Source of the DNA: Obrimoposthia wandeli
Taxonomy: Eukaryota
Length of the DNA: 64,000 nucleotides
NCBI GenBank assembly: GCA_977020255.1
Contig: CDROCS010003798.1
Coordinates: 124,001-188,000 of the forward strand
Reading direction: 5' to 3'
Part shown: positions 7,417 to 8,008 of the stretch, piece after piece
How positions within the stretch are numbered: position 1 is the first letter of the stretch
Layout of the letters: each line of letters opens with the position of its first letter
Notes under the pieces: generated by a model
Database searches by the model: none
The model's input: only the letters and a program-made list of their open reading frames with translations
Told to the model about the DNA's origin: nothing
Made by a program: the position numbers and the translations under genes

Positions 7417-8008
7417 TGAGGTCAAGTCAAGGTCATGATCTCCTGAGATCAAGGTCATTTAAGGTCAAGTTAAGGTCATGACGTCATGAGGACAATGTCA
7501 TTTAAGGTCACGGTGAGGTCGAAAGATGACTCATCGATGACTCATTGATGACTCATATTCTATTTTAGTAACATACTTTAAAACTATATATCTTTTTATC
7601 TGAAGGTTGTATTAACACGCAGTCTTCACCAAAAGACATATCGTGTGTGTGTTTAAGCTTATATAATTTATTTAAACTAAATTATCTACTTATAAAATTT
7701 AGTATTATATAATTTGATAAATATGTTTAAACGTTCGTGTATCTATCTAACAAAGACAGTCACGTACTGCATCTATATTGCAAATACTTGCAACTTTATG
7801 TAATTAATAGTAAAAAGCCAAGTACTACATTTATTCTTATACATGTATGTATGTGTGTGAGTGTCTAAGATAGACATTCATCAATATCTACAAAGACAGT
7901 CACGTGTGTGTGTCTGAGTGTCTAACAAAGACAGTCATCAATAGCTACAAAGACAGTCACGTACTGCATCTATATTGCAAAAAACCTGCAACTTTATGTA
8001 AATACAAA
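7417..8008 (+). repeat. Left TIR of the Polinton, outer ~180 bp missing
   Basis: Reverse complement of about 20914-21590, diverged by small indels and substitutions. Confidence 0.92.
7419..7555 (+). promoter_or_regulatory. Transcription-factor motif cluster in left TIR: 6 AGGTCA, 1 TGACGTCA, 3 TGACTCA
   Basis: AGGTCA at 7419, 7430, 7452, 7462, 7473, 7505; CRE at 7479; AP-1 at 7527, 7538, 7549. Function is inferred only. Confidence 0.55.

Follow-up and report, generated by a model that had tools for sequence, protein, structure and literature searches.

A decayed Polinton and its surroundings

The window (the whole 64-kb stretch of DNA analysed) contains a decayed Polinton/Maverick of ~14.4 kb that spans ~7417-21769. 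The motif-rich region picked out by an earlier sequence-only reading is the left end of this element. Polinton/Maverick hallmarks include long TIRs, a size of 13-25 kb, an (AGT)2 or (AG)3 end motif and a 6-bp TSD (PMC8097293). Here, inverted repeats pair 7417-7980 with 20931-21590, and the long TIRs have ~590 bp common to both ends at ~95% identity; TIR length and element size both fit a Polinton. The gene set, size, long TIRs and apparent AGT-type end are the same as those of Polinton/Maverick (adintovirus) elements. A Pfam domain scan covered 26 ORFs of the element, whose assigned genes are the following:

8099..11310, minus strand: protein-primed PolB (pPolB), broken into several ORFs; two fragments match PF03175, one at E 2.7e-3 and one at E 2.7e-4, both short of the curated cut-off
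14982..15812, minus strand: retroviral-type integrase (rve E 3e-11, above cut-off) with a chromodomain (Chromo E 0.0066)
16527..17177, minus strand: A32-like packaging ATPase, open frame (Pox_A32 E 1.4e-4)
17641..18207, minus strand: dual-specificity phosphatase-like (DSP-like) ORF without catalytic signature; nearest solved relatives DUSP19, DUSP22, STYX and DUSP10
18641..19630, minus strand: IAP-like gene in two ORFs (BIR, RING), from the domain scan; TATATAAG box at 19663
20100..20459, plus strand: probable T7 gp2.5-type single-stranded DNA-binding protein; weak structural matches (Z 5.1-5.6)

Of 508 candidates, 448 are relatives of the ATPase, the best at 80% identity, and most of the best 120 of these 448 carry the PF04665 label. 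Among the solved relatives of the DSP-like ORF, DUSP19, DUSP22 and DUSP10 are phosphatases of the JNK pathway and STYX is a pseudophosphatase; a search for close relatives returned none, and this ORF could be a captured pseudophosphatase or a decay product. IAP homologs are known accessory genes of Polinton/Maverick (adintovirus) elements (PMC8097293, PMC8502044). The domain scan also places a mu-like ORF inside the element. The ORF at 20100-20459 has 10 distant relatives and a predicted structure with a pLDDT of 92. Foldseek gave no significant match for it; VIA-align ranks DUF2815, ASFV CP312R, Enc34 SSB and T7 gp2.5 highest, with Z scores in the weak range (<8). Because these four matches are all of that class, the predicted fold is read as a probable non-specific SSB from a small unnamed family. 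Upstream of this ORF lies a 40-bp duplication that contains two ACCAATT boxes (19999, 20039). The ORFs at 12394-13164 and 11987-12355, which from their position are candidates for the double jelly-roll capsid and the maturation protease, drew no support from Pfam, PHROG or PDB, and single-sequence modelling gave a pLDDT of 30.6. Rfam yielded 0 matches.

The right terminus, an apparently complete end, reads AGTAGG, close to the (AGT)2 motif, and the left terminus is missing. Among 11 candidate 6-mers for a TSD none recurs at 7301-7420, where the left TIR end itself is lost. This copy is probably inactive as a mobile element, and the window holds no further TIR copy. Searching genome contigs with the ATPase alignment reduced 68 candidate stretches to one locus (L001), which has no TIR and no AGGTCA/TGACCT. 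The locus (positions 1-3045 of contig JAYSWT010000372.1, filed in a bacterial MAG) combines a zf-AD/C2H2 gene (E 1.9e-13) with a Polinton ATPase fragment, 76% identical; the contig is eukaryotic contamination and perhaps chimeric.

Elsewhere in the window, a diverged DEAD-box helicase in two ORFs, possibly a pseudogene, lies at 57900-59134 (Helicase_C E 1e-18, DEAD E 1.3e-7). A 105-aa Cys-rich ORF at 1150-1467 is probably secreted; it has no Pfam match, no homolog was found, and all atlas leads are <0.9. Two further tandem arrays are a 16-bp minisatellite of 65 copies (3396-4440) and a 45-bp array of 11 copies (41083-41575). The stretches 44584-46651 and 51500-57100 hold transposase fragments (hAT, piggyBac-like) and the remains of a retrotransposon, presumably Bel/Pao-like.

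Motifs of the terminal repeats and candidate promoters of the element

The motif array forms the outer ~320 bp of the TIR. The right TIR holds ~180 bp more of it (to 21769), a part that the left end has lost. The TIRs and their motif features are listed below:

7417..8010, plus strand: left TIR, truncated; the outer ~179 bp of the right TIR are missing, ~95% identical where alignable
7417..7519, plus strand: left nuclear-receptor half-site array; six perfect AGGTCA, TRAGG(T/A)CA five times, TCAAGGTCA twice
7478..7487, unstranded: extended palindromic CRE of the left TIR, TGACGTCA at 7479; a one-base variant of the palindromic unit of the array
7525..7556, unstranded: left AP-1 triplet; 11-bp tandem repeat of 2.9 copies with the extended site ATGACTCAT in each
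7745..7980, plus strand: inner TIR 57-bp repeats with GTCACGT(A/G), from the tandem-repeat and motif scans
20920..21769, minus strand: right TIR, apparently complete; terminus AGTAGG (5' on the minus strand)
21451..21492, unstranded: right AP-1 triplet and a fourth, degenerate unit, 290-312 bp from the terminus
21500..21741, minus strand: right half-site array; 20 sites at most one mismatch from AGGTCA (9 AGGTCA, 5 AGGACA), two perfect ER4 palindromes

In the left TIR, AGGTCA stands at 7419, 7430, 7452, 7462, 7473 and 7505 (gaps of 11, 22, 10, 11 and 32), TCAAGGTCA at 7427 and 7449, and TGACTCA at 7527, 7538 and 7549, in 11-bp steps. The right TIR carries TGAGTCA at 21452, 21463 and 21474, a CRE at 21532, and 9 TGACCT plus 2 AGGTCA, with half-sites at 34 (the first perfect one), 45 and 58 bp from the terminus. 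The AP-1 and CRE sites share the extended palindromic form ATGA(C/CG)TCAT, and the CREs at 7479 and 21532 are the only two in the whole window. The motifs named by the sequence-only reading are real and lie where it had placed them, including the AP-1 spacing and CRE of the right TIR, for which it had counted at least ten half-sites (11 are present). GGTCATGACC, its IR0-type site in the right TIR, occurs there once, at 21668; no perfect 12-bp IR0 exists anywhere in the 64-kb window.

Enrichment was assessed against 2000 dinucleotide shuffles per TIR, a null that ignores the placement of motifs in tandem repeats. The left TIR has 6 AGGTCA/TGACCT for 0.23 expected, a number reached in 0/2000 shuffles, 3 AP-1 sites for 0.17 (1/2000) and 1 CRE for 0.01 (24/2000). 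The 11 half-sites of the right TIR compare with 0.39 expected (0/2000), and its AP-1 sites and CRE are matched in 2/2000 and 23/2000 shuffles, respectively. The enrichment claimed earlier is confirmed against this null. Neither a CRE nor an extended AP-1 site occurs in the window outside the TIRs, and 0/38 of its other tandem arrays, most of which are AT-rich, hold any of these motifs. The right array gave no blastn match to phages. Five 8-10-nt probes, run in one orientation as a text search through a gapped alignment with 12 named reference Polintons (PMC8504770, file 3), found only scattered single sites, which is a weak negative.

The 11-bp spacing had also been read as helical-turn phasing. 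This describes the perfect AGGTCA of the left TIR (R=0.99, 0/3000 random placements) but not the longer right array (R=0.41, matched by 60% of random placements), so that global phasing of the half-sites is rejected. Since the AP-1 triplet is an 11-bp tandem unit and the half-sites sit in arrays with periods of 11, 16, 32 and 43, the repeat period accounts for at least part of the phasing.

The two TIRs together contain 16 copies of T[AG]AGG[AT]CA (5 left, 11 right), the other ~62.5 kb a single one. DR4 pairs are found at 7452 and 21555, DR5 pairs at 7419, 7462, 21736 and 21615, and ER4 twice. TR/RXR and RAR/RXR prefer a TA or TG 5' extension of AGGTCA, and the half-sites, in DR4/DR5 with this extension, match the pattern of their elements. 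From its sequence, the dominant site is classed as T-R-AGG(T/A)CA in DR4/DR5/ER4 geometry, of predicted TR/RXR type. The SF-1/FTZ-F1/ERR class proposed earlier does not hold as the main one: TCAAGGTCA is found only 3 times (2 left, 1 right), against 5+11 for TRAGG(T/A)CA, and an array of such monomer sites is rejected. The EcRE and ERE consensus patterns are IR1 or IR3 palindromes; perfect IR1, IR3, DR1 and DR2 number 0 in the window, and an ecdysone or oestrogen response element is rejected as well. The DR4 at 7452-7467 is identical, in half-sites and TTTA spacer, to the synthetic TR reporter element given in PMC11601197. Among invertebrates, flatworms, Daphnia and a mollusc have TRs, which recognise half-sites as well as DR0-DR5 and Pal0 (PMC2045677); that of the oyster is a repressor when unliganded and is reported as unresponsive to T3, T4 and TRIAC (PMC4692385). 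Sequence therefore does not single out one receptor class: invertebrate TRs bind DR0-DR5 and may ignore ligand. Nor does hormone induction follow, since AGGTCA arrays equally suit repressing unliganded or orphan receptors; such receptors may bind the array, silencing rather than inducing.

The inner TIR repeats (7745-7980, 20931-21165) contain TACGTG 3 times on the right and 2 on the left, and CACGTG once per TIR; we presume these to be E-box/TACGTG-type motifs, possibly bHLH-type sites. Each TIR also has a TATATAAG box (7658-7665, 21331-21338), ~105 bp inward of the AP-1 triplet and reading outward, with a palindromic core, TTATATAA, so that the box of the right TIR may also serve as an inward promoter.

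Genes flanking the TIRs point toward them: the 3' end of pPolB (minus strand) adjoins the left TIR at ~8099, and the ORFs of 19741-20920, on the plus strand, read in the direction of the right one. Neither TIR is therefore the proximal promoter of its neighbour, and this role is rejected. Internal promoter-like sites are a TATATAAG box before four gene starts on the minus strand (11361, 17543, 18443, 19663), and one longer candidate:

11354..11445, minus strand: candidate pol promoter; a 26-bp duplication that holds two CCAAT boxes (11382, 11408), with a TATATAAG box at 11361

The element holds 6/11 of the TATATAAG boxes of the window, two of these inside the TIRs; from the TIRs to the nearest gene-linked boxes the distance is ~1.8 kb (box at 19663) and ~3.8 kb (box at 11361). 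The duplicated CCAAT before pol and the reuse of the TATATAAG box argue that the element relies on host Pol II factors. Near 11305 (minus strand), in the candidate pPolB promoter region 11290-11445, a start codon is immediately followed by a splice-donor-like sequence, resembling the short leader exon of adenovirus E2B genes.

Repeat origin and divergence of the array

TRF places all the motifs inside tandem arrays, with periods of 11, 16, 32 and 43. In the right TIR, the same context holds ATGAGGTCAT twice and ATGACGTCAT once, one substitution apart; the CRE is 1 of the 48 single-base neighbours of the palindromic array unit, and ATGACTCAT, read directly, is a one-base deletion of the same TGAC/GTCA palindromic unit. 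AP-1, CRE and half-site motifs are not independent: they are one-edit relatives of a single palindromic repeat. The half-site spacings of 5, 6, 11, 16 and 22 fit a ~5.5-bp unit, a period of 5.33 giving the best R. The element holds other slippage arrays too, and unit-length indels distinguish the two TIRs. A random 11-bp unit carries TGA[CG]TCA ~0.1% of the time; when 30-60 hypothetical sites of 6-7 bp are listed, it contains one or another of them in 4-33% of cases.

The two TIRs of one element are copies of one sequence. The right TIR, as a copy of the left, is therefore neither a second observation nor evidence of conservation. Left-right divergence amounts to 5/92 in the half-site array, 2/31 in the AP-1 triplet (both in spacers) and 23/439 in the rest, so that the motif array shows no excess conservation between TIRs (7/123 vs 23/439, Fisher p=0.82). 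On these figures the right TIR is rejected as evidence of conservation, and the corroboration that the sequence-only reading drew from the right TIR falls away: the same sequence was copied and has diverged as fast as the rest. Left-defined cores differ at 1/59 against 6/64 (p=0.12), a split that is biased because 3 of the 6 hit sites perfect on the right; these three substitutions separate perfect sites on the right from imperfect ones on the left.

Among the 20 half-sites of the right TIR, core identity is 0.85 and 5-nt flank identity 0.33; C and A at positions 5-6 are invariant, and T stands at -2 in 14. The five DR5 pairs of this array have five different spacers, two resembling decayed units and three unrelated. 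Neutral slippage was simulated, arrays qualifying with at least 16 sites and being scored for flanks as divergent as observed. Such flanks arise in 31/3221 qualifying arrays at a low indel rate (~1%) and, at high indel rates, in 64/1356 over nine settings, with 14/61, 3/12 and 16/282 in single settings. Neutral slippage models thus reproduce kept half-sites with differing spacers in ~1% to 25% of cases. A constraint signal on the half-sites is present but model-dependent, because the neutral match rate spans 31/3221 to 14/61.

Possible roles of the array and known counterparts

The motif content suggests, with a probability of about one half, that the outer ~320 bp of the TIR act as a host-factor enhancer or silencer for internal promoters. 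The array would have arisen while an ancestor still replicated, slippage and point changes turning one TGAC/GTCA palindromic repeat into units that were kept because they serve as binding sites. The T-R-AGG(T/A)CA half-sites (DR4, DR5, ER4, near-IR0) would be bound by AGGTCA-class receptors of the TR/RXR, RAR/RXR or COUP-TF types, and the three optimal AP-1 sites and one CRE by host bZIP factors. The module would act in an orientation-independent way on internal TATA/CCAAT promoters, and we infer that it does so over 1.8-3.8 kb. Receptors might set permissiveness by tissue or stage, or silence when unliganded, and bZIP factors driven by MAPK/PKA might raise early-gene output. Host-factor binding, enhancer action, selection and any link to a signal are what we infer from the array. 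Of the host-signal-responsive enhancer proposed earlier, the host-factor array is retained as the best reading; independent motifs, right-TIR support, the SF-1 class and hormone induction are not.

All of this can be set against a neutral minisatellite, in which a 5-6-bp GGTCA-like unit and a TCATGA palindrome were multiplied by slippage in protein-primed replication, the likeness to factor sites being coincidence and the AP-1 and CRE sites chance one-edit derivatives. Such an origin would account for the confinement of all motifs to TRF arrays, the spacings that fit a ~5.5-bp unit, the two DR5 spacers like decayed units, the unit-length indels between TIRs, the CRE one substitution from the unit and the other slippage arrays of the element, and high-indel models reach the observed pattern in up to ~1/4 of cases. 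It is nevertheless unlikely: the match is ~1% (31/3221) at a low indel rate, T is found at -2 in 14/20 sites, three DR5 spacers are unrelated, 0/38 other arrays have such sites, and two separate expansions both hit optimal sites. The array may also be an auxiliary replication origin, where end-bound host factors recruit or stabilise the terminal-protein/polymerase complex, like adenovirus NFI and NFIII, with little role in transcription. The first perfect half-site, 34 bp from the right terminus, falls within the adenovirus NF-I zone (25-38), both TIRs lie 3' of the adjacent genes, and the replication chemistry (pPolB) is that of adenovirus. With ~320 bp and ~20 sites, however, the array is far longer than the adenovirus one, and its AP-1 sites stand ~300 bp from the end, which leaves this role quite improbable; it is compatible with the enhancer reading, the two not being exclusive.

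A further possible role of the repeats is that of targets of an element-encoded protein, the alternative offered by the sequence-only reading, or as single-strand hairpins in strand-displacement replication or integration. As single-stranded DNA the right outer array folds better than 200/200 shuffles (z=-4.71), via two 16-bp palindromes, whereas the left array folds no better than shuffles (z=-0.75) and most half-sites are direct repeats rather than hairpin arms. Also in line with this role are the probable SSB, the integrase with its chromodomain and several ORFs without assigned function, but 0/117 element ORFs (>=40 aa) match bZIP, zf-C4 (the receptor DNA-binding domain) or another sequence-specific DNA-binding family, although this copy may have lost genes. 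Targets or hairpins of this kind are very unlikely, and the element-encoded binder of the earlier reading is not upheld.

A more elaborate form of the host-factor reading, drawn by analogy and doubtful, is a latency/induction switch convergent with the HCMV MIE region. Unliganded or orphan receptors on the TRAGG(T/A)CA array would hold the integrated provirus silent; a developmental receptor signal, together with wound/stress MAPK acting via the AP-1 triplet and CRE, would start early genes and excision; and the catalytically dead DUSP-like protein and the IAP would tune the same JNK/apoptosis pathway. If true, an animal Polinton would for the first time have a defined trigger, which would account for the absence of virions under resting conditions; particles of integrated animal Polintons are reported as not observed (PMC8097293). 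The available text of PMC8097293, PMC8502044, PMC8363768 and 10.1101/2023.08.22.554363 describes TIR length, end motifs and TSDs and mentions no internal array or activity trigger. The literature searched, which most subscription papers lie outside, held no report of factor-binding arrays in animal Polinton TIRs. The host-factor code of the TIR would name the pathways (bZIP/MAPK, AGGTCA-class receptors) and the tissues or stages in which natural activity may be sought, and, if the array is an enhancer, each inserted copy brings a dense enhancer beside host genes. Next to the element, at 21905-22280 (minus strand), two exon-like stretches with a ~50-nt intron between them end ~135 bp from the right terminus; they have no Pfam match, and any host gene at this place might come under the influence of the TIR array. 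The evidence base is one decayed copy. The surprise is moderate, because the design is known from herpesviruses, baculoviruses and adenoviruses.

The HCMV MIE promoter contains motifs for CREB (TGACGTCA), AP-1 and RAR (TGACC), and in some models its de-repression from latency requires AP-1 and CREB (PMC13322095); RARE, CRE and kB sites cooperate in induction (PMC4665231). As described in these two sources, the likeness lies in iterated TGACGTCA, TGA(C/G)TCA and TGACC-type receptor sites within a few hundred bp, in a nuclear DNA virus with silent persistence. In HCMV, five CREs, two AP-1 sites and NF-kB sites stand immediately 5' of the IE genes and have a proven function, whereas in the Polinton TIR half-sites dominate, there is one CRE, and the putative module lies in a terminal repeat 3' of the neighbouring genes. 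The cluster of CRE, AP-1 and nuclear-receptor sites is thus present in the TIRs, but the position directly upstream of an immediate-early gene is absent, and the resemblance is analogy, not homology.

Baculovirus hrs are reportedly treated for their CRE/TRE motifs by Landais et al. in 2006. These motifs cluster in hrs, and their number correlates with enhancer strength (PMC13513840). Shared with the TIR, going by the same source, are a repeat-built viral element in invertebrates and clusters of CRE/TRE for host bZIP factors, hrs being both enhancer and origin. An hr is built of ~72-bp units whose 30-bp palindromes bind viral IE1, and hrs lie scattered over a circular genome; no such units occur in the TIR (TRF periods 11, 16, 32, 43), which is terminal, built on periods of 11-43 bp and dominated by half-sites, and no viral activator was found among the element ORFs.

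Host factors with sites in adenovirus ITRs are NF-I (25-38), NF-III (46-55) and, farther from the end, SP1 and ATF (PMC2794291). These ITRs are likewise terminal repeats of a linear genome replicated by pPolB and bear host-factor sites, including the ATF motif TGACGT (PMC2794291). The ITR of HAdV-A31 is 148 bp long, with NF-I, NF-III and SP1 sites, and the available text of this source mentions no receptor array or AP-1 triplet. By composition, the TIR module resembles the HCMV MIE region, the hrs and the adenovirus ITRs, and is a member of none of them.
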